A stretch of 64,000 nucleotides of DNA from Planctomycetota bacterium (GCA_965223265.1 OZ244999.1:2240001-2304000), one strand, 5' to 3'. Shown: positions 3,001 through 38,175, counted from the first letter of the stretch. Program-made: numbers and translations. Notes: a model not told the origin generated them from the letters alone.

Positions 3001-6000
3001 GAACCCTGGCGAGCCGGTGCGACTGGCGATGGACACGAGATCCGGGGCGATCGTGATTGCCTCGAGACCTCAGATCATCCTTCAATTCGAGCGCTTGATT
3101 CAGACAATCGACCGACCATCGACCTACTCCGCCGCCGAAGTTCTGCTCGTGCCTTTGCGTCAAGCCGATGCTGGCGCCGTCGCCGCCGTTTTGCAGCGCA
3201 TGCTGCAGCCCAGTCCGGGGGCGACCGCGACTCCAGCGGCGCGTGCTCTCCAGGAGCAGGTGCGCCAGTTGAGGATTCGTGACTCCGAGGGCGTGCCTGT
3301 GCTGCTTGATCTCTCGGAGCCGATCAAGATCATGGCCGATTCTGCCGCCGGCCAACCCGGTGGCAATCGACTGATCATCACTTCAACGCCTGGAAATCTG
3401 CGGGCTCTTGAGGCGGTCGTGCAGCTCCTCGACACTGTACCGATCGTCGACGGTGTGAGCGTTCGCCTGGTCAAGCTCAAGCGAGCCGATGCCAACACCG
3501 TTAGCCAGATCGTTCGTGACGTATTCCAACAGGGAGTGCGACTCGGTCTCGGCAGCGCGGGGCCGGGACAACCGGAGTCAGAAGCTGGCCGTGCGTTGAC
3601 GCGTCCGCTGAACGTTTCTGCTGATCGCCGGACCAACACGTTGGTGCTGAGCGGGCATCACGCTGCAGTCGCGCTCGCCTTAGGACTCATCGACGACATG
3701 GACCAGGCTGGGGATCTTTTCTTGACAGAGGTGAAGCTCTTTCCGCTGCGCTACAACTCGGCGCAGCGTCTTTTGCCGCTTCTGCGCTCGGTGTTCTCAG
3801 AGTCTGGTGCCACGCCTGGATCCGAAGGTGTCAGCACCCAGGTCACGCGTCTGCGGACTACCATGCCACAGCTTGAGCCCAAGACGACGGAAGTCGCAAA
3901 GGCGCGCGCACCCCTCACGATTCAAGCCGATGGCGCATCGAATACATTGATCGTTGCAGCGCGTTCGGACAGCATGCCGCTCATCGCCGACATCATCGCG
4001 ACGCTCGATATCCCGGCCGCTGCTCGCTTCGAAAACGTCCGCATTTTTCCTCTGGTGAACGCCAGGGCCCGCGACCTGCAGCAAATGTTGAGCGATCTCG
4101 TGCGGACCTCGACGGTGAGTCCTGCAGATCGACCATCAATCAGTGTCGACCTGCGAACGAACGCACTCGTTGTGGCCGCCTCGGAGCAAGGATTGGTCGT
4201 CATCAGACGGCTTGTCGAAGAGCTGGATCGAGAAGTGGTGGACGGCGTGGAAATGGTGGCGCTGCCTTTGAAGTACAACGATGCGCTTCAGGTCGCGGCC
4301 TCGCTGCGACAACTTTTCAACACGCGCCGCCGCGCGGTGACGCTCGGGGGTGGGCAGGCAGACCCTCGTGATCGAGTGGACGTCCGCGCCGATCGCTTCA
4401 CCAACTCACTTCTCGTCGTCGGCACGAGCGAGAACATCGAGCTTGTCCGGCAGATGCTACTGGATCTCGACGCCGAACCAACGGCCGAAGGGGGCGTGCT
4501 GCACATCTTTGTTCTTCAGCACGCAGACGCGCAGCGCGCAGCGACGATGCTCCGCAATCTGATCCGCCAGGGGCTTTATCGTCCAGGGGCCACATCCGGC
4601 GGCGCACAGGCGACGCGGGAACGTATGGCCGTCACGATCGACCCGCGCGTCAACGCGCTCATCGTTTCTGCTAGTCCCGAAAACTTGGCGATCGTCAAAC
4701 AGCTTGTCGGCCAGATCGACCGTGAGGAGTTTGCCGGTGTTGCTGGAGTCAGGCTCTTCAAGCTCAACCATGCATCCTCCGCTCGATTGGCTCCGATTCT
4801 GCAGCAGTTCTTTACGGCGCGGCGAACAGGCGAGGCGACGGTCGGCGATCCAGAGCGGCTCGTGCCCGTTTTCTTCATGGCCGACAGTCGGACGAATACG
4901 CTGCTTGTGGCCGGCAGCCAAGAGAGCTTTGCCGCGATCGAGCGTATGGTGAAAAAACTCGATGTGCCGGATGTCAGAAGCAACGAGATCTTTCAGGTCT
5001 TTCATCTTCGCCAATCGAGTGCGACGCAGCTGCGCGACACGCTGGACAAGCTCTTCCTCAATCGGCCAGCCGTCCTCGGCAACGTTCCCGTGCAGCCGAT
5101 CACAATTGTTGTCGACACGTGGGCGAACGCTCTGATTGTGCGCGCGTCGGTCGATGACATGGAGATGGTGGCGTCGCTCGTCGAGCGTCTTGATATCGAG
5201 CTCACATCGAGCGGTACGAAAGTCCAAGTGATCTCTCTCGAGAAGGCCAACGCTCAGAGCGTCGCGACGACGATTCGCTCACTCTACGCCTCGGGCGGCG
5301 ACAGCGCACCGGTAGCCATCAGTGTGGACGAGCGACTCAACGCCCTTGTGATTTCTGCCGGAGAAACCGATCAGAAGCGTATCGAAGATCTTGTCCAGAA
5401 GCTCGATTCCGGATCGGTTGCAAACGTCAGCGAGATTCGCGTCTTCACTCTTGAATTCGCCGATTCGGTGCAAGTGGCAGCGCTTCTTTCTGACGTCCTC
5501 ACGAACGCACCGATCAATGACCTCAACACCAATCGCCAGACGCTTCTTCAGTTCATCTCGCAAACGGAAGACGGGGAAGAATTGATCGCTTCGGCGCTGC
5601 AAGAGGGCGTCGTCGTGCTTCCGGATACGCGTACGAATTCGCTTTTGGTTTCGACTCCAGTCGATAGTTTGCCACTTCTCGAACAGCTTGTGCACAGGCT
5701 CGACAGCAGTACGCCGCCGCTCGCCGCGATCAAGGTGTTCACCCTCAAGAATGCCGATGCGCGTCAGATGGCAGAGCTCCTTTTGGACATCTTTCGCTTG
5801 CGTGAACCGGGTGCGAGTGCAGCTCGGTCGATTCGCTATAGCCTTGATCGACGCGGTGGTCAGGACGAAGGCGAGCCAGATGCAGAAGGAATGCAACCGT
5901 TTGAGTCCGCTGATGACTTGGGTGTCGCGACCATCGGTTCGGCAGAGCAGGCTTCGCTTACGGTTACCGTCGACGTTCGCACCAATAGCATTCTGGTCGG

Positions 6001-7279
6001 CGGCAGCGAACAGTATGTCGCCTTCGCCGGGGAAATTATCGAAGAGCTGGATTCCAGTCCAGCGCGTGAGCGACGGACGCAGGTCTATCGCCTGCGTAAC
6101 GCTCAAGCGGAGAGTATACAGACTGCGCTGACGAGTTTTCTTGAGCAGAGCCGTCAGCGCATTACCGAAGCGCTCGGTGTCGAGGCTCTCGGGTCGGCAG
6201 AGCGGCAGCTCGAGGAAGAAGTCGCCATCGTCGCAGAGCCTGTCAGCAACACATTGCTCTTGTCGGCGAGCCCTCGATTTTTCGACGAAATCTACGACAT
6301 GATCGAGGAACTGGATCAGCCAGTGCCACAGGTACTCATCCAGGTGCTGCTCGCCGAAGTGACGCTCGACAGCACGAACGATCTCGGGATCGAATGGATC
6401 ACCTCGGGTGACATCGACGGCACTCCGTTCGAGAGCTCGACCGACTTCGGGGTGCCCCAAGACCTGGACACCGCCGGCGGTCTTGCGGCGTCGATCACAG
6501 GCGGCGACGTGCGGTTCCTGCTCCGTGCTTTGCAGACGGACGGGCGACTCGAAGTGCTGAGTCGTCCCCAGATCCTCGCGACCGACAACCAGCAAGCCGA
6601 GATCAACATCGGGCAAAACGTCCCTCAGATTACAGGCAGTCAGTCGACGGAGCTAGGCAGCGTCAACAACCTCGTCGAGTATCGAAACGTCGGTGTCATT
6701 CTGCGTGTCACGCCGCGGATTTCACCCGACGGTTTCGTCAAGATGGACGTCGAGCCGGAAATCAGCTCCCTCAGTAGTTCGTCGGTCGATTTTGGTACTG
6801 GTGTGACCGCTCCCATTTTCAACGAGCGCAGCGCGACGACAACGGTGAGCGTGCAAAACGGTCACACCATCATCATCGGTGGCCTCATCAGCACCTCGGA
6901 CGATGAGCGAGAGCGCAAGGTCCCGATTCTTGGTGACATTCCTTTCCTGGGGGCGGCATTCCGTAGCCGCAAAATGGAGAAGAGACGGACCGAGCTGCTC
7001 ATTATTTTGACGCCGCACGTGCTCGTCAATGTGGCAGAAGCGGATCGCATTACCGACGACAACATACAAAAATCAGGAATCCAAGGGCAGGAGAAGCGCG
7101 ATGAGATGCAGAAGGCGCTTCTTGACGAGCTGTACGACCTGAACCGACAGCGCGAGCTCGAGGTGAACCAGCCGCACGACGATGTGTCTCCCTTCGTACC
7201 TGGCTCCGAAGACGAGGAGCTGCGGCCGCTTGAGCCGACCCCGGAAGGGCTCGACATCTCACCATTCGTCGACGCGTGA
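11..7279 (+). CDS. Giant GspD/PulD-like secretin with about 24 visible N-domain repeats (probably truncated at the window's 5' edge)
   Basis: Repeated D-x-R-T-N-x-L-x-V ... LD modules. C-terminal secretin core (QVLIQVLLAEV, LSRPQILATDNQQAEINIGQNVP, LRVTPRI, KVPILGDIPFLGAAFR, TELLIILTPHV). The frame is open back to the window start. Confidence 0.9.
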   Translation: MAETVRRLYEERSAARGAKRVGQVMILSDEATNRLVVTAPADEYTVIEEIIERLDAVSKRSAGTRIFKLKTADAQQLATILSSSLTRRVGNRQIPRVSIGADRKTNTLIISGEPDDLQAAALIVEEFEGMDSEAPALLRVYEVKEVDAGKLRSDLERLYRRQAENTPNLGTDALFHADSATNRLFIIATQEELVRIHELIGQLDVDQGPDTRQLRVFTVSRTSAASVSAILQQFFVERAQGSHAERVRVSASPDDRTIVVNAPAAILERIESLVTDLDGEGRSDQLVYRSYQLSDGDASILAPKLERLFAQELQTPTTEPQARFEADVTLNRLLVAARVDELPEIDRLVNELTSNAQLSSQVQTILLRESSATQVVSVLKELLATENKEPEGAQALRVSAAPALNAVVVHGLPQRMAFARELIKSLDRVPEGGKAVVQTVKLNSAEAVGLAAAVSQAIEARGLSDRTRRVRVTAEPNSNSILIDGPRDEVNEVIRIIRELDSSARGGGIDVRIYKLENGQVREVSATMRTMLDQIIQQQVQRNPGMPRPPFVVSVDERTETLIVYTTPRHFPIVEQLLTNLDKAPERSARTVHYVALENIDALRAVRQLEALYLNQSSGERPVIEADSLDNSLTIIAKTADLDAIIDLVEQLDAAAPSSEIQVRVVPLVQMPADQMASMLISLYSQMTESEVQLSERLPPRGGDGVSRATDGPTGAPPVSPRSSEPSVTNGADEATGGAKKKEAPEDTNTGRDGGSQGRGADTGRGESGAGSAAPGEPAAGTEKQSGDLAPPSDPARPGVTEAPLAPADSTADDRDPTSGDAPPTGARRGDDARQEEAETPSHAKVFLAVDKSANAILLSGPRLELDVIEELIEDLSFNFVTGDAEFRFFRIKHGNPTAIATALDNLFNSKTPRVIDPRGFVQLPPPVIQIATDRRLRSVIVRATPADFTLIESIIEQLDSEGAMSELRFRSFPLQHADLDEIFPTVQQLAEELQAENPGEPVRLAMDTRSGAIVIASRPQIILQFERLIQTIDRPSTYSAAEVLLVPLRQADAGAVAAVLQRMLQPSPGATATPAARALQEQVRQLRIRDSEGVPVLLDLSEPIKIMADSAAGQPGGNRLIITSTPGNLRALEAVVQLLDTVPIVDGVSVRLVKLKRADANTVSQIVRDVFQQGVRLGLGSAGPGQPESEAGRALTRPLNVSADRRTNTLVLSGHHAAVALALGLIDDMDQAGDLFLTEVKLFPLRYNSAQRLLPLLRSVFSESGATPGSEGVSTQVTRLRTTMPQLEPKTTEVAKARAPLTIQADGASNTLIVAARSDSMPLIADIIATLDIPAAARFENVRIFPLVNARARDLQQMLSDLVRTSTVSPADRPSISVDLRTNALVVAASEQGLVVIRRLVEELDREVVDGVEMVALPLKYNDALQVAASLRQLFNTRRRAVTLGGGQADPRDRVDVRADRFTNSLLVVGTSENIELVRQMLLDLDAEPTAEGGVLHIFVLQHADAQRAATMLRNLIRQGLYRPGATSGGAQATRERMAVTIDPRVNALIVSASPENLAIVKQLVGQIDREEFAGVAGVRLFKLNHASSARLAPILQQFFTARRTGEATVGDPERLVPVFFMADSRTNTLLVAGSQESFAAIERMVKKLDVPDVRSNEIFQVFHLRQSSATQLRDTLDKLFLNRPAVLGNVPVQPITIVVDTWANALIVRASVDDMEMVASLVERLDIELTSSGTKVQVISLEKANAQSVATTIRSLYASGGDSAPVAISVDERLNALVISAGETDQKRIEDLVQKLDSGSVANVSEIRVFTLEFADSVQVAALLSDVLTNAPINDLNTNRQTLLQFISQTEDGEELIASALQEGVVVLPDTRTNSLLVSTPVDSLPLLEQLVHRLDSSTPPLAAIKVFTLKNADARQMAELLLDIFRLREPGASAARSIRYSLDRRGGQDEGEPDAEGMQPFESADDLGVATIGSAEQASLTVTVDVRTNSILVGGSEQYVAFAGEIIEELDSSPARERRTQVYRLRNAQAESIQTALTSFLEQSRQRITEALGVEALGSAERQLEEEVAIVAEPVSNTLLLSASPRFFDEIYDMIEELDQPVPQVLIQVLLAEVTLDSTNDLGIEWITSGDIDGTPFESSTDFGVPQDLDTAGGLAASITGGDVRFLLRALQTDGRLEVLSRPQILATDNQQAEINIGQNVPQITGSQSTELGSVNNLVEYRNVGVILRVTPRISPDGFVKMDVEPEISSLSSSSVDFGTGVTAPIFNERSATTTVSVQNGHTIIIGGLISTSDDERERKVPILGDIPFLGAAFRSRKMEKRRTELLIILTPHVLVNVAEADRITDDNIQKSGIQGQEKRDEMQKALLDELYDLNRQRELEVNQPHDDVSPFVPGSEDEELRPLEPTPEGLDISPFVDA

Positions 7280-8028: not shown

Positions 8029-9159
8029 CTACCGGGAGTCGCGGAAACCGACGCGATGAAAGACGATCGCAATGACATGTAGCCGGCCCCCGCAGCACGA
8101 GCAGAAGGGATGTTCGGTGGGACTGTCCGTCGTCGTCGACGGCGCCGCCCTGGCTCCGTTCGCATCGGAATGAATCTGTGCGCCGTCGGCGGGAGGGTTC
8201 ACTCTAGCGACAAAGACTCGCACCTCGTGGAGGGAGACGGCGCTTTGCGGACTGAGGAATCCGTAGTGACGCACCTTCTGTAGCCCCCGAGGTAGGACGT
8301 GCTGGAGGAAGCGGCGGATGAACTCCAGAGCATCGAGCTCCATGGTCCGCCACCGCCGACTGCCCGACTTCTTCCAGCGAAAGCGAACGCGACCATCGTC
8401 GCAGGAGACGATGCGGGCATTGGAGATCGCTACGCGAAAGACGTAGCGTGATAGATACGTGAGTGTCGACTCGCCGTCACCGACGGCGCGCGAGTCGGTG
8501 ACGAAGTTCTCTGTCCACACCGCAGGCGCAATGTCCTTGAGAAGACCAGCCCGCTGCAGCTCGTGGCGGAATTTGGCGCGAAAGATCTTCGACAGCGCCT
8601 TGACCGGCACGAGAAAGTCGGGGCGCGAGGTGATCCAGCTCGCACCATCGTCGCTCAAGCCGCCGGCCGGCACCAACACGTGCAGGTGCGGGTGATATGC
8701 CAACGCCCGTCCCCAAGTGTGCAGAACCGCGGTGAAGCCAAGGCGCGCCGCACCGAGAAAGCGTGGATCGCGTGCGAGCTTCTGAAGCGATTCAGCGGCG
8801 GCGCGAAAGAGCGCCCGGTAGCAGGCACGCTGCTGCGAGCGCACGAAGGGTCGTAGCGTTGCGGGCAGAGTGAATGTAAGGAGAAAGTAGGGCACCTCGA
8901 GTCGATGCTGTAATTGCTCGGCGAGCCAGCGCACGTTCTTGGAGGACTGACAGCCCGGACAATGGCGGTTGCCGCACGAGCGGGGCGTCCGGTGAGAGCG
9001 AGCGCAGCTCTCGCAGCGCCAGCGCACGTAACCCAGATCGCCAGTGCCACAGGCGCTCAGCAGCGCCAGGACACGACGGTGCTGCAGAGGCACGCTGGAA
9101 CCGTGACACTCCAGATACTCCTCGCCATAGCGCGTGAAAATCTCCGCAAGCGACGCCAC
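8029..9159 (-). CDS. IS91-family Y2 transposase with zinc-binding domain
   Basis: CESC...SCGNRHCPGC zinc motif, TFTLP, HTWG...HPHLH (HUH), YLSRY (YxxxY), RRFLQHVLP..G...VRHYG. Confidence 0.92.
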   Translation of the reverse strand: MASLAEIFTRYGEEYLECHGSSVPLQHRRVLALLSACGTGDLGYVRWRCESCARSHRTPRSCGNRHCPGCQSSKNVRWLAEQLQHRLEVPYFLLTFTLPATLRPFVRSQQRACYRALFRAAAESLQKLARDPRFLGAARLGFTAVLHTWGRALAYHPHLHVLVPAGGLSDDGASWITSRPDFLVPVKALSKIFRAKFRHELQRAGLLKDIAPAVWTENFVTDSRAVGDGESTLTYLSRYVFRVAISNARIVSCDDGRVRFRWKKSGSRRWRTMELDALEFIRRFLQHVLPRGLQKVRHYGFLSPQSAVSLHEVRVFVARVNPPADGAQIHSDANGARAAPSTTTDSPTEHPFCSCCGGRLHVIAIVFHRVGFRDSR

Positions 9160-10073
9160 GGTGCGCTATTGGCCGGCGTTCGTCCTCGCCGCTTTGCCTC
9201 CTCTGAGCGAGGGCGTACCATGAGCGCGTTGATCGTCGCGTGGGCCTGCTCTTCGCCATCACGTGTAAGGTGCAGGTAGATCGACGTAGCCTTGAGCGAC
9301 CTGTGGCCGAGGTACTTCTGGATAACACGGAGGTTGACACCAGCCTCGAGTAAGTGTGTCGCATAGCTGTGGCGCAGAGTGTGGGGCGAAACGCGTTTCT
9401 TGATGCCAAGCTGCGTGGCGACGCGACGCAACGCTGCCTGAGCTGTCTTCCTCGACACGGGCTGCGTGGCCGATCGTCCCTGCTTGTCCCCGCGGCCGCG
9501 GGCGGGGAAAAGAAGTCGCGGGTTGCGATGCGTCTTCCAGTAGCGGCGCAGCGCTTCGAGAGTATCGGGGGGAAGCGGCACATAGCGGTCAGCGGCACCC
9601 TTGCCGCCACGAACGTGCACGAAAGAGCGTGCCGCGTCGACATCTCCTACTTCGAGCGAGATGCCCTCAGAGATCCTCAGGCCAAGGGAGTAGATCATCC
9701 AGAAGCAGGTGCGCCACTGCTGGCTGCAGGTCGCCGCGATGATCTCGTGAACCTCTTCGACGCTGAGGACGTCTGGCAGCTTGGATTCCTTCGGCGTTCG
9801 CAAATCCTCCAGCGTCTTCCAGTCGCGCGGCACCGTGCGTCTGAAGAAAAATCTCAAAGCGCTGTAGGCGATTTTCAAGGACCCGATAGCGAACTGACGC
9901 TCGTGCCTGAGGTGGAAAAGATAGTCGCGGACTTGAGTTTCCGAGAGCGTATCGGGAGACTTGTGATAGTGTTTCGCCAGCTGCCCGACGGCCCAAACGT
10001 AGACCCTGCAGGTACCGTCGGCGAGGCCGGCAAGTTCCAGATCCTGGAGAAACTTTTGGCGAAGAGGCGTCAT
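9057..10073 (-). CDS. Tyrosine recombinase (phage integrase family, SAM-like N-terminus)
   Basis: Catalytic set GLRISE (R), GGKG (K), HTLRH, LGH, TSIY (Y). The N-terminus MTPLRQKF is typical of integrases paired with IS91-like transposases. The ORF overlaps the transposase start by 103 nt. Confidence 0.92.
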   Translation of the reverse strand: MTPLRQKFLQDLELAGLADGTCRVYVWAVGQLAKHYHKSPDTLSETQVRDYLFHLRHERQFAIGSLKIAYSALRFFFRRTVPRDWKTLEDLRTPKESKLPDVLSVEEVHEIIAATCSQQWRTCFWMIYSLGLRISEGISLEVGDVDAARSFVHVRGGKGAADRYVPLPPDTLEALRRYWKTHRNPRLLFPARGRGDKQGRSATQPVSRKTAQAALRRVATQLGIKKRVSPHTLRHSYATHLLEAGVNLRVIQKYLGHRSLKATSIYLHLTRDGEEQAHATINALMVRPRSEEAKRRGRTPANSAPWRRLRRFSRAMARSIWSVTVPACLCSTVVSWRC

Positions 10074-10442: not shown

Positions 10443-10940
10443 ATGGGACGCTTTTCGATGCACCGCCGGTGGGCTGATGTTCCTCAACTCGTCGTGTGCG
10501 TCAGCACTGGCTTCGTGCTGTGGAGCTGTGCGGCGCTACAGCGCGAGCGCACCGATCCCTCGTCGCCGGTCGTGGCTCTCAACGTCCTCTCGACCCCCGC
10601 GCCGACAGCCGAGGGTTTCGGCGTGAACGTCTTCGCGCACCGCAAAGGTGAAACAAAGGCGAGCCCGATCGTTGATGGTTCTCTTGAGGTGAAGCTGTTC
10701 GACGGGCTGGCCTCTGGGGACGACGCCGGCGCGCTCGAGCCATTGGCATCTTGGACCTATTCCGCCGAGGATCTTCTTGGGCGTGAACATCGCTCGTATC
10801 TTGGCGTGTCCTACGGTCTCAGGGTACAGTGGGGACGCAGGAAGCCGTCGGCGCGACATGTGACCATTTCCGTTCGCTACATACCTCCCCAAGGACAGGC
10901 CGTGGTGGCGCCGCTCACATCGCTTCTCGTGGCGCCGTAG
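10443..10940 (+). CDS. Hypothetical lipoprotein
   Basis: Hydrophobic N-terminus ending LWSC followed by a beta-rich body. It follows the secretin once the mobile inserts are removed. Confidence 0.55.
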   Translation: MGRFSMHRRWADVPQLVVCVSTGFVLWSCAALQRERTDPSSPVVALNVLSTPAPTAEGFGVNVFAHRKGETKASPIVDGSLEVKLFDGLASGDDAGALEPLASWTYSAEDLLGREHRSYLGVSYGLRVQWGRRKPSARHVTISVRYIPPQGQAVVAPLTSLLVAP

Positions 10941-11022
10941 CTCACCGGGCTGTCTGGACGGCGTCCGGACTCCGGACGTAGAGCAGGAAGTGGCAGAAGC
11001 AGAGCGCCAAAAAAAAAGCGCC

Positions 11023-11059
11023 AAAAAAAAGCGAGAGTGAACGGTGTTCACCCTCGCTT
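11023..11059 (-). terminator. Rho-independent terminator downstream of tRNA-Ala
   Basis: Stem GCGAGAGTGAAC / GTTCACCCTCGC next to A8 on the + strand (a U-tract on the - strand). Confidence 0.7.
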
Positions 11060-11067
11060 GCGTCTTG

Positions 11068-11143
<76 letters not shown>

Positions 11144-11761
11144 GTAGCATGCGGACAGTTTCCGGCGGTGCCGCTAATGATTCGGCAGCGCGCCGGTTGA
11201 TTCTTTTTCGGTCCACCGCGACATGACTTCACGGCAGGTCTTCTGTACCTGGTCTGCGACCGTTTTTGACGGTGACCTTTAACTGCGGCCGTTTTGGCTG
11301 TGACTTTTTTGGGCTGCGATCTGGTTGGCTGCGGCCTGGCCCTGCGATCCGATTTTTCTTCGGTCAATGCATAGCATCGACTTGATCGATCGATCGCAGG
11401 AAAAAAAGATCATAGAGCCGGTGCGATGCCTGTCAAGGTCGATTTTGTTTGAATGAGACAGCCATGCATTATACTTTCTGAGCCACACGGCGCGTCGCTC
11501 GCTGGTGAATGGAACGTCGGTGCTTCGCCGCTGCAATAGGCTTTTGATCGCCGGTCGAAGAGCCGTTCGGCCGAGAATCTGGCCTCTGTCCGTCGTGCTC
11601 GACTGTGTCGGTGTCGCCGACCACGTACAAAAAACCATAGAAGGCTCGGAGATTTCCTGCGTTTGCCACCGACGATCTGAGCGGGAAGACAGGTGTCGGC
11701 TCGAAGCGCTCCGGCGGGCCGCACTTGCTGCGCAGACAGTCAGCTACGGTGACCCAAGGCA

Positions 11762-14700
11762 ATGCCGAACCCAAAGCCGAGAAGCAAGCAAATGGTCTAT
11801 GTGTCTCCGGCGGCTGTCGGAGGTCCTCCGCGCGAAGTTGATCTGAGTTTCGTCAGACGGCTGCTGCTCGCGGATACGTGGGCCAGATACGCGACGCATC
11901 GCCGGCAGCGGGAGCCTCTCGTTGCCACCGGGGTGGAAGCTTTCGGGCAGGCCGCCACTGACCGTGCCGCGGCGGAGGAGCGGAGCGGCTTCGACGTGGC
12001 AGCCAGCGGGATGGCCGGCGTCAAGGAGCTCTGCGAGCAGTTGCAAATTACGCCGACCCCATCGCTCCACTCAACGGCCGACCCTGTGTCTTGCGGTTTC
12101 ACACAGTGGATTTTCTTGCGCCTCTTGGAGGGAGGGCTTCTCGAGCGTGTTGAGCGCGATCGAAGTGTTTGCGAGCAGTGCCAACGAACGTTCCCGATAG
12201 GTCGCTACACCCGCTGCCCGTTTGACCAAGGCGCGTTTGTGGACGATCAAGTGACTCGGTGGTACCTGAATCCGGGGCCGTTTGCTGAACGACTCCTGAA
12301 CGACGTCGACAAGGGAAAATGGAGCCGATCCAATCGGCGTGAGCAGCGGGAGATGCTCGATCGTCGTCGCGGTGTCGAACTGATCTTTTCGATCTCACGC
12401 CCTTTCGAGCAGGAGTACTTTGAGGTCGAGGTCTTCACGACGAATATTGAGGCGATCCATGGCGCGACTTTCCTGCTCTTCGACCCATTCCATCCGCTCG
12501 CCGATAGTATCGTCGACGCCGCGTATTTGGACGAGGTCAACCGTTATCGAGAGCGCGTCAAACATGGAACCGAACGCCGTGGTTCTGCGGTGCGGACCGG
12601 GGGGTTCGCACTCAATCCGGCCACGCTCCAGCACATCCCGATTCTATTGAGCCCACTGGCGAACGAGCCGTTCGGTGACGGGGTCGTGATGGGGGTGCCG
12701 GCACACGACCGCGAGCTCTTTGCCCTGGCCCGCAGTATGCGTTTACCGATTCGGGAAGTGATCCATGGCAACGGCGCTAAGTTCGATGACAAGAGCCGGC
12801 TGGTGGAGCCGTGGCTTGGCGATGGTGTCCTCACCAACTCGGGACCGCTGACGAGTCTGTCGCGTAAGGTTGGGCGCGACCGCATCATCTCGACGCTCTC
12901 GCGTCGCGGGATCTGTCGCCGCGTTACCCGACACCGATATCGTCGCCACGCGATCTCAGGTCCCTATGGCTGGGGAGCGCCCGTTCCGGTCCTTCATTGC
13001 GGAATCTGCGGACCCGTGGGCGTTCGCGACGACGAGTTGCCGTACGCGTTTGCTTCGGCTGCGACCAAGAGCGACCAGGCGCCAAGCGATGCGTCGCTGC
13101 GATGTCCTGAATGTGGTGGGCGCGCTGACGCCGATCCGCACACGATTCTGCCATGGCTCGGGCATTCGTGGCATTTCTTGCGGTCGATCCTGCCGAGACT
13201 TGAGGTCGCCGCATCTGTACCTGAGGTCGACGCGTCGCAGGCGACTGCGGTGTCTGAGCCAGCCGTAGTTGAGCCGGCAGAGGCAGCCGAGGAAGCCGCT
13301 TCGAGCTTGAGTTCGACTCCGAGCCCAACACCGGCGACACCTTCTTCGAGCATCGCTTCGCGCCACGCTGCCGTCGATTCTGACGCGCCAGCTGACGAAC
13401 CTGTGGCGACGGGCACACCGCCGCCGTCCGCGCCGTCGATCAAGACTGCATCGGGCGATGCCGCCGAAGAAGAAGTGGTGTCCGGCGACCAAAGTCGCGG
13501 TGGGGCCGAAGTCCGTGTGCCGGCTCATGCGGAGAGTTCCCCGGCTGTCTCCAGCGACGCGGGAGTTCCCACGCAGCCAGTACCGGAGTCGCAAAATGCC
13601 ACGAGCGAGTTGCCCGAGGAGCTCGACGCTCCCGAGCGTCCCGACGCGTCCTCTGAGGCGAGAGAGACTGGCGCGGCGGCCAAAGTGAGCAGCGAGGCTG
13701 TGGGAACGGAAGGTGAGAGCAGCGACGAGGATCAAGCCGAACCATCGGTGGTGGCGGCGCCTCAAACCGCGGCTGCTCCAGCGGGAGACGGTCGGCCGCA
13801 ATCATCGCCGGCAGAGCGGCTTGCTCCTCCTCGTCCTCGCAAAGGGTTTCGTCAGCGTCGTACGTTTTCCGGCCCGCAGCTGCCACTACCAGTTGACGCG
13901 GCTTTCGGAGCCCCCGACGAATGCGTCAAAGAGGTTCTTGGATATCGTTTCGTCACCAAGTTTCTGTACGACCTAGGCGAGTGCCCAGTCTATGAGCCGT
14001 TCAGTCGGTTTTGTTCGGTCGCCACGGCGAAGTGGGGTGACGACGGTGACAACGCCGCTGCCGCTCGCTGTGTCGATCGGGGGAAGGTGGACGAATGGAT
14101 TTCACGTTACGGCCTTGACGCTTTGCGGTTGTCCGTCTTGTTTGCCGGGGCGGTCGATTCCCCTATCGAGTTCGACGCACGACGAGTACGGCAGATGCGG
14201 CGACTCTGCGAACGCATTCGACGACAGGTGAAAGAGCGTCACGAAAAGGGTAAGTTCGTCTCCGGCCGCATCCTTCGCCGTAAGCACCTCTTGATTCATG
14301 CGCTCACGGAGCGTTTGGAGGCGTGGAAGTTCCACACTGCCATCGCCGCACTGCTGCGTTTCGTGCGCCTGCTCGGCAGTCCGGAGGTCACCATCGAGGA
14401 AATGGACTCCGCATCCTTGCGGACCTTCGTCATTCTGCTCTCTCCGTTTGCTCCGCAGCTCGCCCAAGAGTTGTGGGGGATCTTGGGCCAGGAGGGTGAG
14501 GTGGCCTCACAGCCTTGGCCCGTCGCCATCGACGAGCATGTCCATCCTCCGGAGCGTGAGTTCGCGATTCTCGTCAATGGCAAAGTGCGCGACCGAATGG
14601 AGCAACCGGCGACGTTGAAGGCCGAAAAAATCGAGTCGAACGCCTTACAGCGCGAGGCGATTCGCGAGCTCGTTGGCCCGAGAAAGATCAGCAAAGTCGT

Positions 14701-14767
14701 CGTCGTACCGCACCGGTTAGTGAGCATCGTGTTGGAGGCAGAGCCGAAAGCCGACGACGATGCTTGA
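11762..14767 (+). CDS. Leucyl-tRNA synthetase-like paralogue with degenerate catalytic motifs and a long low-complexity insertion
   Basis: LeuRS-like blocks: FTQWIFLRL, EVFTTNIEAIHGATF...HPL, VMGVPAHD, G.LTNSG, WGAPVP, RYGLDALRL, LSPFAPQLAQELW, ILVNGKVR, VVVVPHRLVSIV. No HIGH or KMSKS motif. Confidence 0.8.
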   Translation: MPNPKPRSKQMVYVSPAAVGGPPREVDLSFVRRLLLADTWARYATHRRQREPLVATGVEAFGQAATDRAAAEERSGFDVAASGMAGVKELCEQLQITPTPSLHSTADPVSCGFTQWIFLRLLEGGLLERVERDRSVCEQCQRTFPIGRYTRCPFDQGAFVDDQVTRWYLNPGPFAERLLNDVDKGKWSRSNRREQREMLDRRRGVELIFSISRPFEQEYFEVEVFTTNIEAIHGATFLLFDPFHPLADSIVDAAYLDEVNRYRERVKHGTERRGSAVRTGGFALNPATLQHIPILLSPLANEPFGDGVVMGVPAHDRELFALARSMRLPIREVIHGNGAKFDDKSRLVEPWLGDGVLTNSGPLTSLSRKVGRDRIISTLSRRGICRRVTRHRYRRHAISGPYGWGAPVPVLHCGICGPVGVRDDELPYAFASAATKSDQAPSDASLRCPECGGRADADPHTILPWLGHSWHFLRSILPRLEVAASVPEVDASQATAVSEPAVVEPAEAAEEAASSLSSTPSPTPATPSSSIASRHAAVDSDAPADEPVATGTPPPSAPSIKTASGDAAEEEVVSGDQSRGGAEVRVPAHAESSPAVSSDAGVPTQPVPESQNATSELPEELDAPERPDASSEARETGAAAKVSSEAVGTEGESSDEDQAEPSVVAAPQTAAAPAGDGRPQSSPAERLAPPRPRKGFRQRRTFSGPQLPLPVDAAFGAPDECVKEVLGYRFVTKFLYDLGECPVYEPFSRFCSVATAKWGDDGDNAAAARCVDRGKVDEWISRYGLDALRLSVLFAGAVDSPIEFDARRVRQMRRLCERIRRQVKERHEKGKFVSGRILRRKHLLIHALTERLEAWKFHTAIAALLRFVRLLGSPEVTIEEMDSASLRTFVILLSPFAPQLAQELWGILGQEGEVASQPWPVAIDEHVHPPEREFAILVNGKVRDRMEQPATLKAEKIESNALQREAIRELVGPRKISKVVVVPHRLVSIVLEAEPKADDDA

Positions 14768-14971
14768 CGGGCTGTCGACCTCCGTTTGAGCTCGACGCCG
14801 GCTCGCGTTTTGTCTCGCCGGTCATGGACCGAGTAAGCGTGGCGACGCGGCGATCGAGCGCTCTGGCTCGGCCTCCCGCTCTCTCTCAGCGGAATCTTGC
14901 GCGTTGAGACGTGCCTTCAGCCGAAGAAGGTTGGGAATAACCGAAACTGCAAAAGCCGCCGGAGACCTTTC

Positions 14972-16177
14972 ATGCGTTTTGGGAACGTATCCAAGAGACT
15001 GCTAGCAGATCTGACGAAGCTCGCGTTGCTCGTTTCGATGTTCTTCGTTCTACAGCATCAGGTTACGGGAGTGCGCGCAGTTGCAGAGAGTGAGTCGCGG
15101 GTTGTGGCCAATCACGCCGCCGATCAGCGGCGTCTCGCTGAGCGGAACGAAGAGCTGCAGACCCAACTTGAGCACGCGGTACTCACGCTGACGGAGCTCA
15201 AGAAAGAAGTGCGGAGCCTCTCGACGACACTCTCTCGGGCGCGTACCGAAACCGTGCGTGTGGACGAAAAGATGGCGTCGCTTGAGACTCTCGTGTCGCG
15301 GCGAATCGACGGCGAGAGCCGTCGCGTTGACGCGCTTGAGAAGCAGACTGTGAAGGCAGATTCCCAGATCGCCGAGCTGTCGAACAACCGCGTCCGCGAC
15401 GCGAAGCGAATGAAACGCCTCATGCTTGACCCCACTGCTCAGCTGCGCGGCAACGGCACCGTGGGGAGTGGTGTCTTGTTCTACAGCGAAGCGCAACGGG
15501 AAGAGTCTGTAGATGCCGGTTACACAACCTTCGTTTTGACCGCCTATCACGTGGTCTTGGAAGTGTCTGGAGACGATCACCCGCTCTTCGTCGAAGAAGT
15601 GCGCGTGACGATTCCCGGGGCTGACGAAATGACGCCGTTCTCCGCGCGCGTGGTCCTGTTTGATCGCCAGCGCGACTTGGCTCTGCTCAGACTCGACGCA
15701 GATGTGCGATTCGACAATCTCGTCGATCTCATGCCCCTGGAGGCGCTCGACCGTCTTGATGTCTTCTCACCGGCTTACGCAGTTGGCTGTCCGCTCGGCA
15801 ATCAGCCGTTCCCGACGCTTGGCGAAGTGTCTTCTCGCAACAAACCAGTGGGCGCGCAGAATTTTTGGATGCTCAACGCGCCGACGTTTTTCGGCAACTC
15901 GGGCGGCGGAGTCTATCTCGCCGAGAGCTGCCGGCTGATCGGGATCTCCAGCATGATCTACACCTACGGCAAGTCGAACCCCACCGTCGTTCCCCACATG
16001 GGTCTTTTTGTGCCGCTGCGGGAAGTTTATCGCTGGCTTGACGAGGAAGACTTCGCGTTCGTCTACCGTCGCCGGCCTGTCCCGGATCGCCTGGTCTGGA
16101 AGCTGCTTCCCTCCGTCGAAGAGGGGGAGGCCAGCTCTCCGTTCGCGAGCACCAGCGCGACCGCAGACGACGATTGA
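14972..16177 (+). CDS. Membrane-anchored coiled-coil + trypsin-like serine protease
   Basis: TM segment, coiled coil and catalytic triad motifs LTAYHV, RDLALL, GNSGGG. ATG at 14972 preferred to the longer ORF start at 14897. Confidence 0.85.
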   Translation: MRFGNVSKRLLADLTKLALLVSMFFVLQHQVTGVRAVAESESRVVANHAADQRRLAERNEELQTQLEHAVLTLTELKKEVRSLSTTLSRARTETVRVDEKMASLETLVSRRIDGESRRVDALEKQTVKADSQIAELSNNRVRDAKRMKRLMLDPTAQLRGNGTVGSGVLFYSEAQREESVDAGYTTFVLTAYHVVLEVSGDDHPLFVEEVRVTIPGADEMTPFSARVVLFDRQRDLALLRLDADVRFDNLVDLMPLEALDRLDVFSPAYAVGCPLGNQPFPTLGEVSSRNKPVGAQNFWMLNAPTFFGNSGGGVYLAESCRLIGISSMIYTYGKSNPTVVPHMGLFVPLREVYRWLDEEDFAFVYRRRPVPDRLVWKLLPSVEEGEASSPFASTSATADDD

Positions 16178-16273
16178 GGGCCGTGAGGCCTTCGTAACTC
16201 GACGCAGAGGAGAGGGATCTCGCCGACGGCTACAGCGACCGGGGGCGAGCGCTCAGGGTGTTCAAAAACTCCT

Positions 16274-16302
16274 TTGTGACGCACCCGAACAGTTCCTATA
16301 AT
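16274..16302 (+). promoter_or_regulatory. Putative sigma70 promoter
   Basis: TTGTGA-17 nt-TATAAT. Confidence 0.5.
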
Positions 16303-16645
16303 CTGGGGTTCGCAGGGAGTGAACCATCGGGCGGTACTGGTGGCACTCCCACAACCGACCATAGCGTTGCCTCGCAGACTGGATTGGCGTACATTCGTGC
16401 CTCTTCGGTCCATCGGGATCGACGGGGTGGGGGCGAAGCCGATTTTTTCCGAGAATCGCTTCGACCATGATACGTAAGTAAACTGACGGTCGAGCCGTTC
16501 GCGCCTGTGTCTATTGGCGGGTGCAGCGGGCGACCGAGTCTAAAGTTAGCGGAAATTGAGCTCGGCCTGGTTTCGTAAGCCAGGGCGGCGGCGTGCGCGC
16601 CGCGCCGAGAGCTTTCCAAGCGGCCGACGAACGGAGAGTCGAAAC

Positions 16646-17749
16646 ATGCGGAACAGTCATCCTTTTGGTTGTCAGCGAATCCTCAGACGGGCGGCTGTCC
16701 TGACGGCCAGTCTCCTTTTCGTCGCCAGTTTCCGCGTTGCACCCGGCTTATATGGCCAGACGGACGCTCCAGTGCTGATTGGGCCAGGAAACACGGCACG
16801 CACGAGTGATCCCGCCGCCGTCAAGATCGTCGATCGATATCTCGACTCGATCGGTGGGCGTGAGACGCTGAGCAAGATCAAGGATCGTCGGACTGCGGTC
16901 ACCAACGTGCTCTACCAGCCTGCCGGGGAGGCCCACGCGCGGATCTCCCTGTTCATCAAGGATCACTACAACTTGCGTGAGGAGTGGGAGCTCGACTATG
17001 AGCTCATGGAGAACCAGAAACTTGCGTTTGTGCAGATCTACAACGCTGAAGAAGAGGAGGCGTGGGTCCGCGTCCTCGATCGTGTCGATCAGCTTGACGG
17101 CCGGACGTTGCATGTCTTCGTGTACGGGAAGTACATGGACGATTTTTTCAATCACTGGGAAGCGGATGGCTACACCCTAAGACTTGATGGTGAAGCCGAA
17201 GTCGACATGGGCGAGGATAGCGAGCCCATCCCTGCTGACATTGTGTTGGTGACTGACTTTGGGCGACGCCAATCGGAGCGCTACTTCTTCTCGAAGGAGA
17301 CAGGCCTACTGATCAAGAAGGAGTGGCGCGACACGACGAAAGACCCGAAGAAGCCGATCCGCCGCGAGCAGTACTACAAGCGCTACAAATCGATTCCTTT
17401 CATGGACGACTCGGGCCTGTCGATCAAGTTTGCGATGGTGCTCGAGATCTTCGGCGACGGTGATCTCGACACAGAGCGGAGATTCTCCCTCGTGCAGTTC
17501 AACTCTGGACTCAGTCAGGATCTGTTCAAGCGACCGGAAGGTAAGCCCGGTCCGCGCGTCACTGGATCAGGGCAGCGCGGCGTCCCGCCGGTCGCTCCCA
17601 AACCGGAAGGGAGCGGGACGCGAACGCGTCCGGGAGGCAAACCTGGAGGCAGTGCCACGCGCAGACCAGGAGCGTCGGCTCCGACGCCCGCCCCGGCTCC
17701 GACGCCCGCCCCGGCTCCGACGCCCGCTCCGGCTCCTTCCCAGCCGTGA
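16646..17749 (+). CDS. Exported protein, LolA-like/lipoprotein-sorting-like fold, with a Pro/Ala-rich tail
   Basis: Signal peptide, IVDRYLDSIGGRETLSKIK motif, YFFSKETGLLIK, and an (APTPAP)x3 tail encoded by an 18-bp tandem repeat at ~17676-17735. Start chosen after GGAGAG. Confidence 0.55.
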   Translation: MRNSHPFGCQRILRRAAVLTASLLFVASFRVAPGLYGQTDAPVLIGPGNTARTSDPAAVKIVDRYLDSIGGRETLSKIKDRRTAVTNVLYQPAGEAHARISLFIKDHYNLREEWELDYELMENQKLAFVQIYNAEEEEAWVRVLDRVDQLDGRTLHVFVYGKYMDDFFNHWEADGYTLRLDGEAEVDMGEDSEPIPADIVLVTDFGRRQSERYFFSKETGLLIKKEWRDTTKDPKKPIRREQYYKRYKSIPFMDDSGLSIKFAMVLEIFGDGDLDTERRFSLVQFNSGLSQDLFKRPEGKPGPRVTGSGQRGVPPVAPKPEGSGTRTRPGGKPGGSATRRPGASAPTPAPAPTPAPAPTPAPAPSQP

Positions 17750-17954
17750 CCATTTTTGGTGCGACTTCACAGCGTCTGGCCGGTGTCTGAAGGTTGGACA
17801 CTCCTGCGCGCGCTCGCGGTTTTCATCGCTTGTGCTAGTCGTAAGTCCGGCATCTATAGCGCTCTGGCGATGAGCCGCGCCTTGCTGCTGGGCGCCCACC
17901 GACGCGGACTGTGTGGTTGGCGCGGCCATTGCAATTCGTTCGGGCGAGTCGAAC

Positions 17955-18080
17955 GACGTGGGGCAGTTGCCTGAGTGATCAGCCCCGAACAACGACCCCT
18001 CCTCCGAAGTCCCCACGTCCGATTTCTGCTCTCCCACCGCGCCCCGGGTACCCTCCTCCCACACCTGGGGCTTTTTTTTT
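17955..18080 (+). ncRNA. Candidate sRNA with CCUCCUCC loop motifs ending in an intrinsic terminator
   Basis: Stem GACGTGGGG (17955-63) / CCCCACGTC (18011-19) encloses CCCCTCCTCC. Terminator GCCCCGGG-TACCCTCCTCCCACA-CCTGGGGC-T9. Confidence 0.45.
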
Positions 18081-18119
18081 GCCTTCAACCGATTGCGCTA
18101 GCGCCAGGCTGAGCGTGAC

Positions 18120-19211
18120 TCACCCGGCGCAACTGCTTCTCCGCGTCGCCAAGCTGAGCTGTCCGCACGCGCCTTGAATGTCTTCGCCCCGGCTGCGGCG
18201 GATCGTCACGCTCCCACGAAATTCCGCCTCGATCAGCCAGCGGCGAAACTGAGTGACGCGACTCAACTCTGGTTTTTCGTAGGGCGCTTGCGGGAATGGG
18301 TTCATGCCGATGAGGTTGATATTGCCGGCACTGCGCCGCAGGAGGCGGGCTAAGTCTCGTGCCATCGCATGCGAATCATTGACGCCCGGGAGCACGATGT
18401 ACTCGAACGTCGGCCGCCGGCCTGTGGCAGCGGCATGATCGGCCACGGCAGCGAGAACGTCGCCAATGGGGTGGCTCTGGTTGAGGGGGATGAGCTTGGT
18501 GCGCAGTTCATCGGTCGGGGCGTGTAGCGAGAGTGCTACGTTCACCTGTGGGAAACGTTCACCCAGCGCGCGGATTCGTTCAGGAACACCTACCGTTGAC
18601 ACCGTGATGCGCCGTGCGCCGATGGCGACCAGGTCGCGATGAGTCAGGATCTCGAGGGATGCCGCAACCGCGCCAAAGTTGAGCAGCGGCTCGCCCATGC
18701 CCATGTACACGACGTTGGTTTCCTGAGCGCCGGTAGCTCTACGCATCAAGAGAACCTGATCGACGATCTCTCCGGCGGAGAGTTGACCGCTGAAGCCGCC
18801 ATACCCAGTGGCGCAGAACGTGCACTTCACGGGGCAGCCTGCCTGGCTCGAGATGCAGTAGGTCGTTCGATCGCCGTCCGGAATGACGACGCTTTCGATG
18901 GTAGCGCCGGAGGCTTGCCGCCAAAGGAACTTTTTCGTACCGTCGCGCGACTCCAAGGCGGAACGACTTTCGAGAGGATGTAGGACGAACCGGTCGGTCA
19001 AACGCGTTCGCAGTGTCTTCGGCAGATTCAACATAGCCGCGAAATCGGCCGGTGGTCGCCGATAGACCCACTCCGTAATCTGCCGTTCTCGGTAGGCTGG
19101 TTCGCCACACTCTGCCAGAAATGTCTGCAGCTGCTCGGAAAGAGCCGCGGCCGAAAGATCCAGCAGGGTAATCTGTTGGTGGCGAGGCGTTGGCGGCGTG
19201 AGCTCACTCAT
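18120..19211 (-). CDS. rlmN: 23S rRNA m2A2503/tRNA m2A37 radical SAM methyltransferase
   Basis: CISSQAGCPVKCTFC, MGMGEP, SLHAP, RGEDIQGACGQL. Confidence 0.95.
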   Translation of the reverse strand: MSELTPPTPRHQQITLLDLSAAALSEQLQTFLAECGEPAYRERQITEWVYRRPPADFAAMLNLPKTLRTRLTDRFVLHPLESRSALESRDGTKKFLWRQASGATIESVVIPDGDRTTYCISSQAGCPVKCTFCATGYGGFSGQLSAGEIVDQVLLMRRATGAQETNVVYMGMGEPLLNFGAVAASLEILTHRDLVAIGARRITVSTVGVPERIRALGERFPQVNVALSLHAPTDELRTKLIPLNQSHPIGDVLAAVADHAAATGRRPTFEYIVLPGVNDSHAMARDLARLLRRSAGNINLIGMNPFPQAPYEKPELSRVTQFRRWLIEAEFRGSVTIRRSRGEDIQGACGQLSLATRRSSCAG

Positions 19212-35838: not shown

Positions 35839-36534
35839 ATTCCCGCCTCTGAGTCTCCTCCCCTGAACTTCGAGGGAAGGTGAACTGGTCGAATCGTGCG
35901 CTCTACGGCCGCGGCAGACTCTGATCTGTTTTCCGCGATCGTGCCCCGCGTGCGGTAGAATGGCCTGCATGGTGTGTCCTGACGAAACGGGCGATCCCGT
36001 TTCTCGCTGTGTCAAGCTTGCGGGTGAAAGTCCCGCCGCGGTAGGAGCCGGTGCGCCGCGTAGCAGGTACCGGGCGTGGGGAGAGATCCCTCCGTCTGAG
36101 CGGTATGTCAAAGCCCTCAGGGAGTCGTACGACTCCTGCGGAGGGGAGCAAAGCCGCGGGCCCGATGCGTAAGCGTGAACCCTGCAGCCTCGTGAGATAG
36201 ACAATCGAAAGGTGGAGTGGCCGAGTGTCACGACGAAGGCAACAGACTGTACCTGGGCAATCCATGTGGGTCGTAGTAGCCGCGTGCGGCGAGGCGGCCG
36301 TGATGGACACAACCGGAGGGGTACAGGACGCTCCCGGGGTATTGGGGAGGGCACGTGGTTACGGTTTGACACGGAACAGGAGAGGCCCTACCCGGCTGCC
36401 GACGTCGGGCGAAGGCGGCGCCTATAAGCCGATGGCGAAATGGCGTCGTGCGGGGAGGGAATCCGAGGGGTTCATAGTACCGCCGAGGCTGCGTAACAGC
36501 GGGGGAGGGAAGGGGCCCTGCTTTAGTCACGCCT

Positions 36535-37942: not shown

Positions 37943-38175
37943 AGTCACGCCTGTGTGTGGAGGTAAGTACGAGGGCATGACCTCCCACGAGCGCATCGTG
38001 AAAAAACTTGGCCTCCATCGTTTAGTCGGCACAATACGTTACCCGGGAGGTGTACACGCGCCATGAGAAGACTATCGGGGTAAGCCGTGTGCGGGAAATC
38101 CGCACGCACGGTTTGAAAGGGGGGCTCAGGAAACGGGTCCCGATTACTATGGGACACCGCGCCTGAGCCCTACCA

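Follow-up and report, generated by a model that had tools for sequence, protein, structure and literature searches.

The leucyl-tRNA synthetase (LeuRS) of yeast mitochondria takes part in the splicing of group I introns. LeuRS or its isolated C-terminal domain has also been described, in the accessible text of two reports, as rescuing defective mitochondrial tRNAs without catalysis (PMC3210327, PMC3927954). In these mitochondrial cases it is the scaffold of the protein, above all the C-terminal domain and connective peptide 1 (CP1), which binds or stabilizes structured RNA without aminoacylation, and the RNA roles are moonlighting activities of active enzymes. A second precedent comes from the archaea, where LeuRS-I of the Sulfolobaceae (Weitzel et al. 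2020) and LeuRS2 of the Halobacteria (Fang et al. 2014) are, as summarized in PMC9437257, extra LeuRS copies which bind tRNA-Leu with little or no charging. Here we analyze a gene found in a stretch of 64,000 nucleotides from a Planctomycetota bacterium (GCA_965223265.1, OZ244999.1:2240001-2304000; the window in what follows), which encodes a bacterial-type LeuRS derivative whose catalytic motifs are lost and which we therefore call dead LeuRS. The gene is present in nearly every genome of its class, and we lean towards the reading that it is the ancestral leuS of this class, persisting for a non-catalytic property of LeuRS, most likely the binding of tRNA-Leu or of structured RNA.

In the bacterial LeuRS of known structure (Thermus thermophilus 1h3n and 2bte, Escherichia coli 4aq7) the Rossmann core, the zinc knuckles, CP1, the helical anticodon-binding domain and the C-terminal domain follow each other in the same order as in dead LeuRS. 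Unlike these enzymes, dead LeuRS has no HIGH motif, no KMSKS loop, no leucine-specific domain and no editing Asp, its leucine pocket is degenerate and an insert of 224 aa has been added. The similarity to the archaeal proteins lies in the presence of an extra conserved copy beside a working one, which for LeuRS-I and LeuRS2 is thought to act via binding of tRNA-Leu, and LeuRS-I is described as having a disrupted CP1 and an acidic region as well (PMC9437257). The acidic part of LeuRS-I is, however, its C-terminal domain, whereas that of dead LeuRS is an internal disordered insert, and while the same review reports that LeuRS-I continues to form leucyl-adenylate, dead LeuRS has lost the motifs of the ATP site. 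Moreover, LeuRS-I and LeuRS2 are archaeal lineages of separate origin, while the dead copies group with bacterial LeuRS. We found no sign of common descent with the archaeal copies, as the best matches of dead LeuRS were all bacterial and archaeal-type models scored only about 47–52 bits; our trees were calculated without archaeal copies. In contrast to the moonlighting enzymes of mitochondria, catalysis has been lost outright in dead LeuRS.

In the literature searched, of which the coverage was partial and restricted to main texts, we found no paper on a dead LeuRS in Planctomycetota. The accessible text of a 2016 survey of synthetase paralogues does not mention Planctomycetes (PMC5388404), and the extra LeuRS copies listed in the accessible text of the 2022 review are archaeal only (PMC9437257).

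The gene product and its fold

The open frame runs without interruption over its 1001 codons, as had been stated in a first-pass annotation made from the sequence alone; a gene caller gives a shorter version of 991 aa which starts at M11. The closest relative of known structure is the LeuRS of T. thermophilus (1h3n, E 2.8e-76), to which residues 21–991 can be aligned collinearly in three blocks. This alignment extends through the anticodon-binding helical domain and the C-terminal tRNA-elbow domain up to T. thermophilus residue 876, which bears out the collinearity described in the first-pass annotation. A Pfam search identified the LeuRS editing domain PF13603 at residues 200–379 (E 1.2e-24) and Anticodon_1 (PF08264) at residues 837–956 (E 4.8e-13), whereas for the catalytic core there was only a weak match to tRNA-synt_1g at residues 31–153 and no match to PF00133. 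Against the bacterial leuS equivalog model TIGR00396 the protein scores 280 bits and is thus below the family threshold of 548.4 bits.

We modeled the structure with AlphaFold2 on the basis of 23 family members. The model has a mean predicted local distance difference test score (pLDDT) of 75 and a predicted template modeling score (pTM) of 0.71, the pLDDT being mostly 85–96 in the folded parts. In a Foldseek search the top matches were the bacterial LeuRS structures 2bte, 5on2 and 4aq7 with template modeling (TM) scores of 0.71–0.74. According to the model the gene product is a full-length protein with the fold of a bacterial LeuRS. The N-terminal LeuRS helix (...E-x-K/R-W-Q/R...) that is found in other orthologues is absent from the window protein and from its two closest relatives, and upstream of position 11762 there is no remnant or frameshifted version of this helix in any frame.

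Loss of the catalytic motifs

The positions of the motifs and domains are collected in Table 1. The alignment to 1h3n confirms that the sequence PPREVDLSFV stands at the HIGH position. In an alignment of 49 rows, comprising 27 dead copies and 22 canonical LeuRS, the H-x-G-H motif is missing from all dead copies and present in all canonical rows, and exactly the same distribution is found for KMSKS. Of the T. thermophilus residues 584–648, which include the leucine-specific domain and the KMSKS loop, about 14 residues remain ahead of YGLDALRL, so that the absence of KMSKS at this place, already noticed earlier, goes back to a deletion of the loop. The motifs of the leucine pocket (PYPS... and GGxEHAxLHLLY) are degenerate in the window protein.

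In canonical LeuRS the second Asp of AHDxxD anchors the amino group of the substrate. This Asp is missing from 26 of the 27 dead copies and present in 22/22 canonical rows of the same alignment, and an exchange of D to E in TTRPD is found family-wide among the dead copies. Measured by the two marks of CP1, the threonine-rich motif and the Asp conserved in AHDxxD, the window protein has the fold but not the motifs; the altered sequences TTNIE and AHDREL with the lost Asp had been correctly recognized beforehand. The statement that the CxxC sites are kept holds for one cluster only: the second zinc knuckle with C413/C416 and C448/C451 is intact, whereas in the first cluster C137, C140 and C152 are followed by D155. 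In the orthologues of genus g5 the first zinc knuckle is entirely gone. Judged from these alignments, the aminoacylation site is dismantled and the CP1 pocket is without the Asp that would hold the amino group of the substrate. Because these motifs are lost, and reading the loss with the established enzymology of class I synthetases, we infer that neither formation of the adenylate nor charging of tRNA nor canonical post-transfer editing is to be expected.

A stretch rich in Ala, Pro, Ser and Glu, given as about 230 aa in the first-pass annotation, proved to be an insert of 224 aa (A 20%, S 15%, P 13%, E 11%). It is placed in the loop matching residues 515–530 of the T. thermophilus enzyme, and the net charge of residues 481–708 is −23. 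Inserts of 167–255 aa with net charges between −21 and −77 are found in all 16 members from the order of the window genome, while at this site the seven class-level copies (7/7) have 13–27 aa only. Charged disordered inserts recur at varying sites across the dead clade. In three class-level copies (L022, L024 and L028) part of the C-terminal region of CP1 has given way to an Arg-rich sequence, such as five consecutive Arg and then PTRRRP, and the copies of family f6 (L022, L028) have an acidic insert of about 130 aa after the N-terminal helix which the copy of family f4 (L024) is without.

Table 1. Position of the dead LeuRS gene, of its domains and motifs and of the neighboring genes in the window (aa, residues of the window protein)
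Feature	Position	Strand	Details
Dead LeuRS gene	11762..14767	+	1001 codons plus stop, uninterrupted; bacterial-type LeuRS derivative
HIGH position	11840..11851	+	D27-L28-S29-F30 in GPPREVDLSFV, opposite HMGH of 1h3n
First zinc knuckle, remnant	12170..12226	+	C137, C140, C152; fourth ligand replaced by D155 (CPFD)
CP1 editing-like domain	12359..12916	+	aa 200-385; fold kept in the model; pLDDT ~90-96
CP1 threonine-rich motif	12434..12451	+	FTTNIE; F225-TTNIE-A opposite FTTRPDT
CP1 AHDREL	12701..12718	+	A314-HDREL319 opposite AHDQRD; second Asp replaced by Leu
Second zinc knuckle	12998..13114	+	Intact, C413-x2-C416 ... C448-x2-C451
Acidic disordered insert	13205..13876	+	aa 482-705, 224 aa; pLDDT < 50 (AlphaFold2)
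Deletion site of leucine-specific domain and KMSKS loop	14045..14089	+	aa 762-776
Anticodon-binding (helical) domain	14087..14506	+	PF08264; family-specific patch
GKFVS patch	14249..14263	+	G830-K-F-V-S834; with E879/D882 in the anticodon-binding domain
LeuRS C-terminal domain	14507..14764	+	Opposite T. thermophilus residues 816-876; pLDDT ~90
tRNA-Ala(GGC)	11068..11143	-	618 bp upstream of the dead gene, divergent
Membrane-anchored trypsin-like serine protease gene	14897..16177	+	Probable start ATG 14972; Trypsin_2 E 1.3e-13
Secreted LolA-superfamily-fold gene, Pro-rich tail	16556..17749	+	Probable start ATG 16646
RlmN-like radical-SAM gene	18120..19211	-	Convergent; 9/10 loci

A canonical leuS elsewhere and the distribution of the dead copies

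The genome, a single contig of 9.18 Mb, contains a canonical leuS at G000:C1:3067374-3070346, which lies about 816 kb from the dead gene. Its open frame of 1018 aa scores 899.8 bits against TIGR00396 and has HVGH and KMGKS. Charging in this genome is done by this canonical leuS elsewhere, and the dead gene is not the sole leuS.

In a database search with the dead LeuRS about 22 proteins scored 464–2242 bits, all of them without PF00133, and after a gap ordinary LeuRS followed with at most 286 bits. Two of these members are named class I tRNA ligase family protein of Planctomycetota by NCBI. A profile search of 1.84 billion representatives gave a similar picture: among the best 150 matches the top 19 (at least 886 bits) were by pattern without HIGH, KMSKS, TTRPDT and AHDxxD, and canonical LeuRS began at rank 20. 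The window protein is 46–49% identical to its nearest relatives, and between the extremes of the family the identity is about 30%.

In order to count the dead copies we used a profile of the C-terminal 290 residues, which separates the dead copies (254–440 bits) from canonical LeuRS (at most 232 bits). A full-length mixed profile failed as a detector, its best E-value not splitting dead from canonical copies across the phylum, since in their N-terminal halves the class-level dead copies still resemble LeuRS closely. The matches of TIGR00396 across the phylum were too fragmented for counting second copies. The C-terminal profile revealed dead copies in 50 of the 52 genomes examined from the class of the window genome, each at least 80% complete, namely in 17/17 genomes of its order, 4/5 of family f4, 27/27 of family f6 and 2/3 of family f5. 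This profile detected no dead copy in G021 (93% complete) and fragments only in G028. Among 121 sampled genomes of the phylum there were dead-type matches in the window genome and in four of the five other genomes of its class, but in none of 115 genomes of other classes among the matches listed, from which a very divergent copy could escape.

Two of the class-level dead copies exceed the cut-off of TIGR00396, that of family f4 (G025:C28:60868-63324, L024) with 693.6 bits and that of family f6 (G023:C19:1724-3559, L022) with 555.6 bits. As these copies are without HIGH and KMSKS and nevertheless above 548.4 bits, annotation may call them leucine--tRNA ligase, and dead copies of the f4 and f6 types which are mis-called in this way can distort analyses of marker genes or copy numbers. 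Among the database representatives, which come without genomic context, P0182, P0125 and P0240 are LeuRS-like proteins of about 800–830 aa with degenerate HIGH and KMSKS positions, and some of them retain the editing sequence AHDxRD (P0182). P0125 is within the top 19 of the family; P0182 and P0240 may be other dead-LeuRS lineages.

Selection

For the window gene and its nearest relative the synonymous divergence (dS) is 1.77 and thus saturated, and the ratio of nonsynonymous to synonymous divergence (dN/dS) of 0.31 is unreliable. We therefore turned to close orthologues of genus g5 and compared G004 with G018 and G010 (dS 0.16–0.28). In these pairs dN/dS is 0.20 in the N-terminal folded part (512–514 codons), 0.10 in the C-terminal folded part (296 codons) and 0.39–0.40 in the acidic insert. 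For comparison, 37 in-frame codons of the upstream non-coding region gave 0.7–0.9, and the canonical LeuRS of G004 and G010 gave 0.125. Since the values of the folded parts are comparable to that of the canonical LeuRS, the dead gene is, on these estimates, constrained about as strongly as the real enzyme. With orthologues in 50 of the 52 genomes of the class and with purifying selection on the folded parts, the gene is not a decaying pseudogene, and the proposal of a pseudo-enzyme made in the first-pass annotation is supported.

Conserved and newly conserved positions

We took the positions with a conservation of at least 90% among 22 canonical LeuRS and determined which share of them the order-level dead copies retain. 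This share is highest in the anticodon-binding domain (62%), followed by CP1 (48%) and the C-terminal domain (43%), while the first and the second Rossmann half retain 27% and 29% and the first zinc knuckle 0%. In the class-level copies (f4 and f6) the Rossmann core is less degenerate (58% and 71%), and the PYPS and GGIEHAxLHLLY motifs are still visible.

Other positions are conserved among the dead copies although LeuRS shows no such conservation. These cluster at residues 826–844 (R..GKFVS...L..K..L), 879–882 and 923–931, and two of them are family-specific insertions. This family-specific conservation points to a new putative functional surface and not to loss alone.

The C-terminal domain is the platform for the tRNA elbow in real LeuRS. 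An Asp scan of the Mycobacterium tuberculosis LeuRS, according to its accessible text, identified C-terminal residues critical for binding of tRNA-Leu (PMC3561953), and we transferred these residues to the dead copies via the T. thermophilus alignment. The hydrophobic platform positions of the domain remain hydrophobic in the dead copies, and there is a basic stripe in which K/R941 is basic in 20/23 and R945 present in 23/23 members.

Dead LeuRS as the probable resident leuS of the class

We calculated two trees, the first from 46 rows and 765 columns with LG+G4 and the second from 60 rows and 793 columns with LG+C20+F+G4 by posterior mean site frequency (PMSF) approximation. Three database duplicates were left out of both trees and the very long branch G022_C16 out of the second. 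All dead copies form one clade with a Shimodaira–Hasegawa-like approximate likelihood ratio (SH-aLRT) support of 100 in both trees. The canonical copies of the class, on the other hand, are polyphyletic in the second tree, where starred branches force them into at least three separate places among the LeuRS of other Planctomycetota. The working LeuRS of family f5 (G022:C37, L026/L072) is a deeply different type of LeuRS (with HMGH). This f5 enzyme groups with family f36 of another class (G070, G098; L053, L060) and not with the other canonical copies of its own class, which suggests that the working enzyme was replaced in this family.

The gene is transcribed divergently from a tRNA-Ala gene, as had been described, and this gene was identified as tRNA-Ala(GGC). 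In nine of ten related loci tRNA-Ala(GGC) adjoins the dead copy as well, divergently in eight and co-directionally in one, the tenth locus being too short. This tRNA gene is thus a conserved landmark of the dead-LeuRS locus and not an incidental neighbor. In other classes tRNA-Ala(GGC) lies upstream and divergent of the canonical leuS in 8 of 35 genomes (4/15 and 4/20) from five families, mostly at a distance of about 130–380 bp and once of about 1.3 kb, while it was found beside none of the five canonical leuS loci examined from the class itself. The dead gene holds the tRNA-Ala(GGC)-linked position, and polyphyly is seen among the working copies of the class. Taken together, this makes it probable that the ancestral leuS of the class, resident and vertically inherited, survives in the dead gene and that other copies have replaced it in its function. 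We regard this conclusion as fairly well supported, although the observations could equally be produced by a tandem duplication after which the active copy moved elsewhere. The term paralogue, which the first-pass annotation had used for the dead gene, is accordingly probably the wrong way round.

Apart from the tRNA no Rfam element was found in the 618-bp leader at the gathering threshold or at E-values up to 1. A tRNA-Leu(CAA) gene lies about 4–8 kb upstream of the dead gene in 4/10 related loci (L045, L049, L050, L051); it was not seen in the equivalent stretch of the window. On the far side of tRNA-Ala(GGC) the window contains a tyrosine-recombinase (phage integrase family) gene and an IS91-family (Y2 transposase) gene on the minus strand at 8029-10073, which overlap by about 100 bp, and A-rich tracts at 11009-11030. 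A mobile element may have inserted at the tRNA-Ala gene, which would perhaps explain part of the upstream differences in the window genome.

Conserved downstream genes

The dead LeuRS gene is followed on the same strand by a serine protease gene and by a gene for a protein of LolA-superfamily fold, and all of the extended loci (10/10), which represent six families of the class, show this order. The protease has a short N-terminal tail of about 10–15 cytoplasmic residues, one transmembrane helix, a coiled coil and the protease domain; matches to DegP/DegS-type proteases are weak, and the His, Asp and Ser motifs are conserved in 11/11 orthologues. A homologue of the protease stands downstream of the dead copy in all ten extended loci. 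The Pfam search recovered Trypsin_2 from the window as well as from 9 of 14 short loci, the remaining five being too short for the domain.

The gene of LolA-superfamily fold is likewise present in 10/10 loci and encodes a product of 320–430 aa with a signal-peptide-like N-terminus. It matches no Pfam or NCBIfam family. The Atlas gave leads only ('outer membrane lipoprotein-sorting protein' and DUF620), which were later backed by a fold search: the AlphaFold2 model with a pLDDT of 72 matches structures of DUF1329, LolA, LolB and RseB/MucB with E-values from 8e-10 to 1e-5. Both downstream products look extracytoplasmic, whereas the dead LeuRS sequence is without a recognizable export signal.

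The intergenic gaps are 24–334 bp long, and one pair of longest open frames overlaps. A scan of positions 10900-18200 for promoters and terminators gave matches at consensus level only and a weak terminator-like hairpin at 14787-14805. A search of sequencing data listed four DNA-type contig sets from one study and no RNA set. The conserved order also takes in genes which cannot be co-transcribed with the dead gene, namely the convergent RlmN-like gene and tRNA-Ala.

Possible function of dead LeuRS

Since the catalytic residues are lost and the gene is nevertheless intact in nearly every genome of the class, dead LeuRS probably has a new non-enzymatic job. On balance we favor, with modest preference, that the conserved ancestral leuS persists for the binding of tRNA-Leu or other structured RNA, an idea in keeping with the observation that the anticodon-binding and C-terminal domains are better conserved. 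Catalysis would have disappeared from the resident leuS when the activity had become available from other leuS copies, and the working copies would later have been exchanged. Dead LeuRS would then survive through non-catalytic binding of the RNA, which it might contact with the anticodon-binding domain, the elbow platform of the C-terminal domain and the body of CP1, and its role would be that of a regulator, chaperone or sensor which binds tRNA, not that of an enzyme. The acidic disordered insert could be a self-masking or partner-recruiting tail, and the GKFVS patch in the helical domain an added interaction site.

Several observations weigh against this interpretation. The basic residue R811 of E. 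coli LeuRS, which contacts the variable arm, has a basic equivalent in only 10/23 members, and the folded parts are not notably basic, with net charges of +7 for the N-terminal and 0 for the C-terminal part of the window protein and down to −36 in relatives. The acidic insert is not universal in the dead clade, class-level copies carrying acidic or Arg-rich inserts elsewhere, and therefore any role of the insert cannot be the core function of the family. No link to tRNA is suggested by the two conserved genes downstream, whose products are envelope proteins. As to the evolutionary evidence, the dN/dS values come from a genus other than that of the window, for whose own pair dS is saturated, both trees are quick searches without bootstrap, and the stem of the dead clade is long (0.4–0.5), which makes its position in the tree unsafe. 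Because of this long stem the descent from the resident leuS rests mainly on synteny.

The envelope genes raise the question whether dead LeuRS could be a protein scaffold or regulator working with this module, a cytoplasmic partner, substrate or regulator of a DegS/RseB-like pathway without any role for RNA. The same-strand order of the three genes over six families with its short gaps, the protease triad intact in all orthologues and the LolA/RseB fold of the third product speak for such a connection, and the family-specific patch and the disordered acidic tails would fit protein–protein interaction. The three products differ, however, in their export features: the protease exposes only some 10–15 residues to the cytoplasm ahead of its membrane helix, the LolA-fold protein starts like a secreted protein and dead LeuRS has no such signal, which would place them in different compartments. 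Moreover, the conservation of RlmN and tRNA-Ala extends the order beyond co-transcribed genes, and the promoter and terminator calls are not decisive for an operon, so that we consider a scaffold of this kind rather unlikely. A combination of both ideas is a little less probable still. Here dead LeuRS would have escaped loss because it already had a second role before the takeover, sensing or sequestering tRNA-Leu (or sensing leucine status) and reporting to the co-transcribed envelope module, and would in this way couple translation status to envelope proteolysis. The module would consist of the DegS-like protease and the RseB/LolA-like protein, signaling would proceed via the acidic tails and the GKFVS surface, and charging would have passed, on more than one occasion, to leuS genes akin to those that other Planctomycetota carry.

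If some catalytic activity had survived, it would have to be sought in CP1, which might work alone as a trans-editing-like hydrolase of altered specificity, for example on acyl- or N-blocked aminoacyl-tRNA where no anchor for the amino group is needed. CP1 is the strongest sequence match of the protein and among its most confidently modeled parts. The TT has for the most part survived in the threonine-rich motif, as has the first Asp in AHD, and the changes are patterned rather than random, the exchange of D to E in TTRPD being found in at least 85% of the dead copies. But the Asp for the amino group has been replaced by L, Q, F or H in 26/27 copies, class-level copies replace much of the motif set and have the Arg-rich insert within CP1, and of the positions which canonical LeuRS conserves in CP1 not more than 48% remain; a hydrolase appears improbable to us. 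An active LeuRS with non-canonical motifs, such as an antibiotic-resistant or stress-specific second enzyme, is hardly credible. Second copies for self-immunity do exist, and one of them, the agnB2 LeuRS (5ah5), is among the sequence and Foldseek matches of dead LeuRS; the f4-type dead copy even scores above the cut-off of TIGR00396. Yet the window protein has neither HIGH nor KMSKS, the loop of the latter being physically deleted, and the motifs of its leucine pocket have degenerated; there is also no biosynthetic cluster nearby. Equally far-fetched is the view that a duplicated leuS has left a relic which is decaying or has no function. The loss of all catalytic signatures, and in the window protein also of the N-terminal helix, would agree with decay, but 50 of the 52 class genomes keep the frame intact in spite of only about 30% identity between the extremes, the dN/dS values of the folded parts are far from those of the adjacent non-coding codons, and family-specific invariant residues as well as a confidently predicted fold would not be expected of a relic.

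Dead synthetase copies are known mostly as scattered cases, and dead LeuRS adds a bacterial example with unusually clean evolutionary evidence. As it forms a single class-wide clade under purifying selection at what appears to be the ancestral locus, it offers a good system for studying what becomes of a synthetase scaffold after the loss of catalysis. It is also a case for how an essential gene can be replaced without being lost.

Other features of the window

The window starts with a very long open frame of 2422 aa at 11-7279 (+). Further downstream there are two copies of a group II intron on the plus strand, at 36018-38150 and 38832-39544, which match RF02003 (D1–D4) with 75.4 and 73.7 bits and RF00029 (domain V/VI) with 45.8 bits each; between its two matches the second copy seems to be much shorter.

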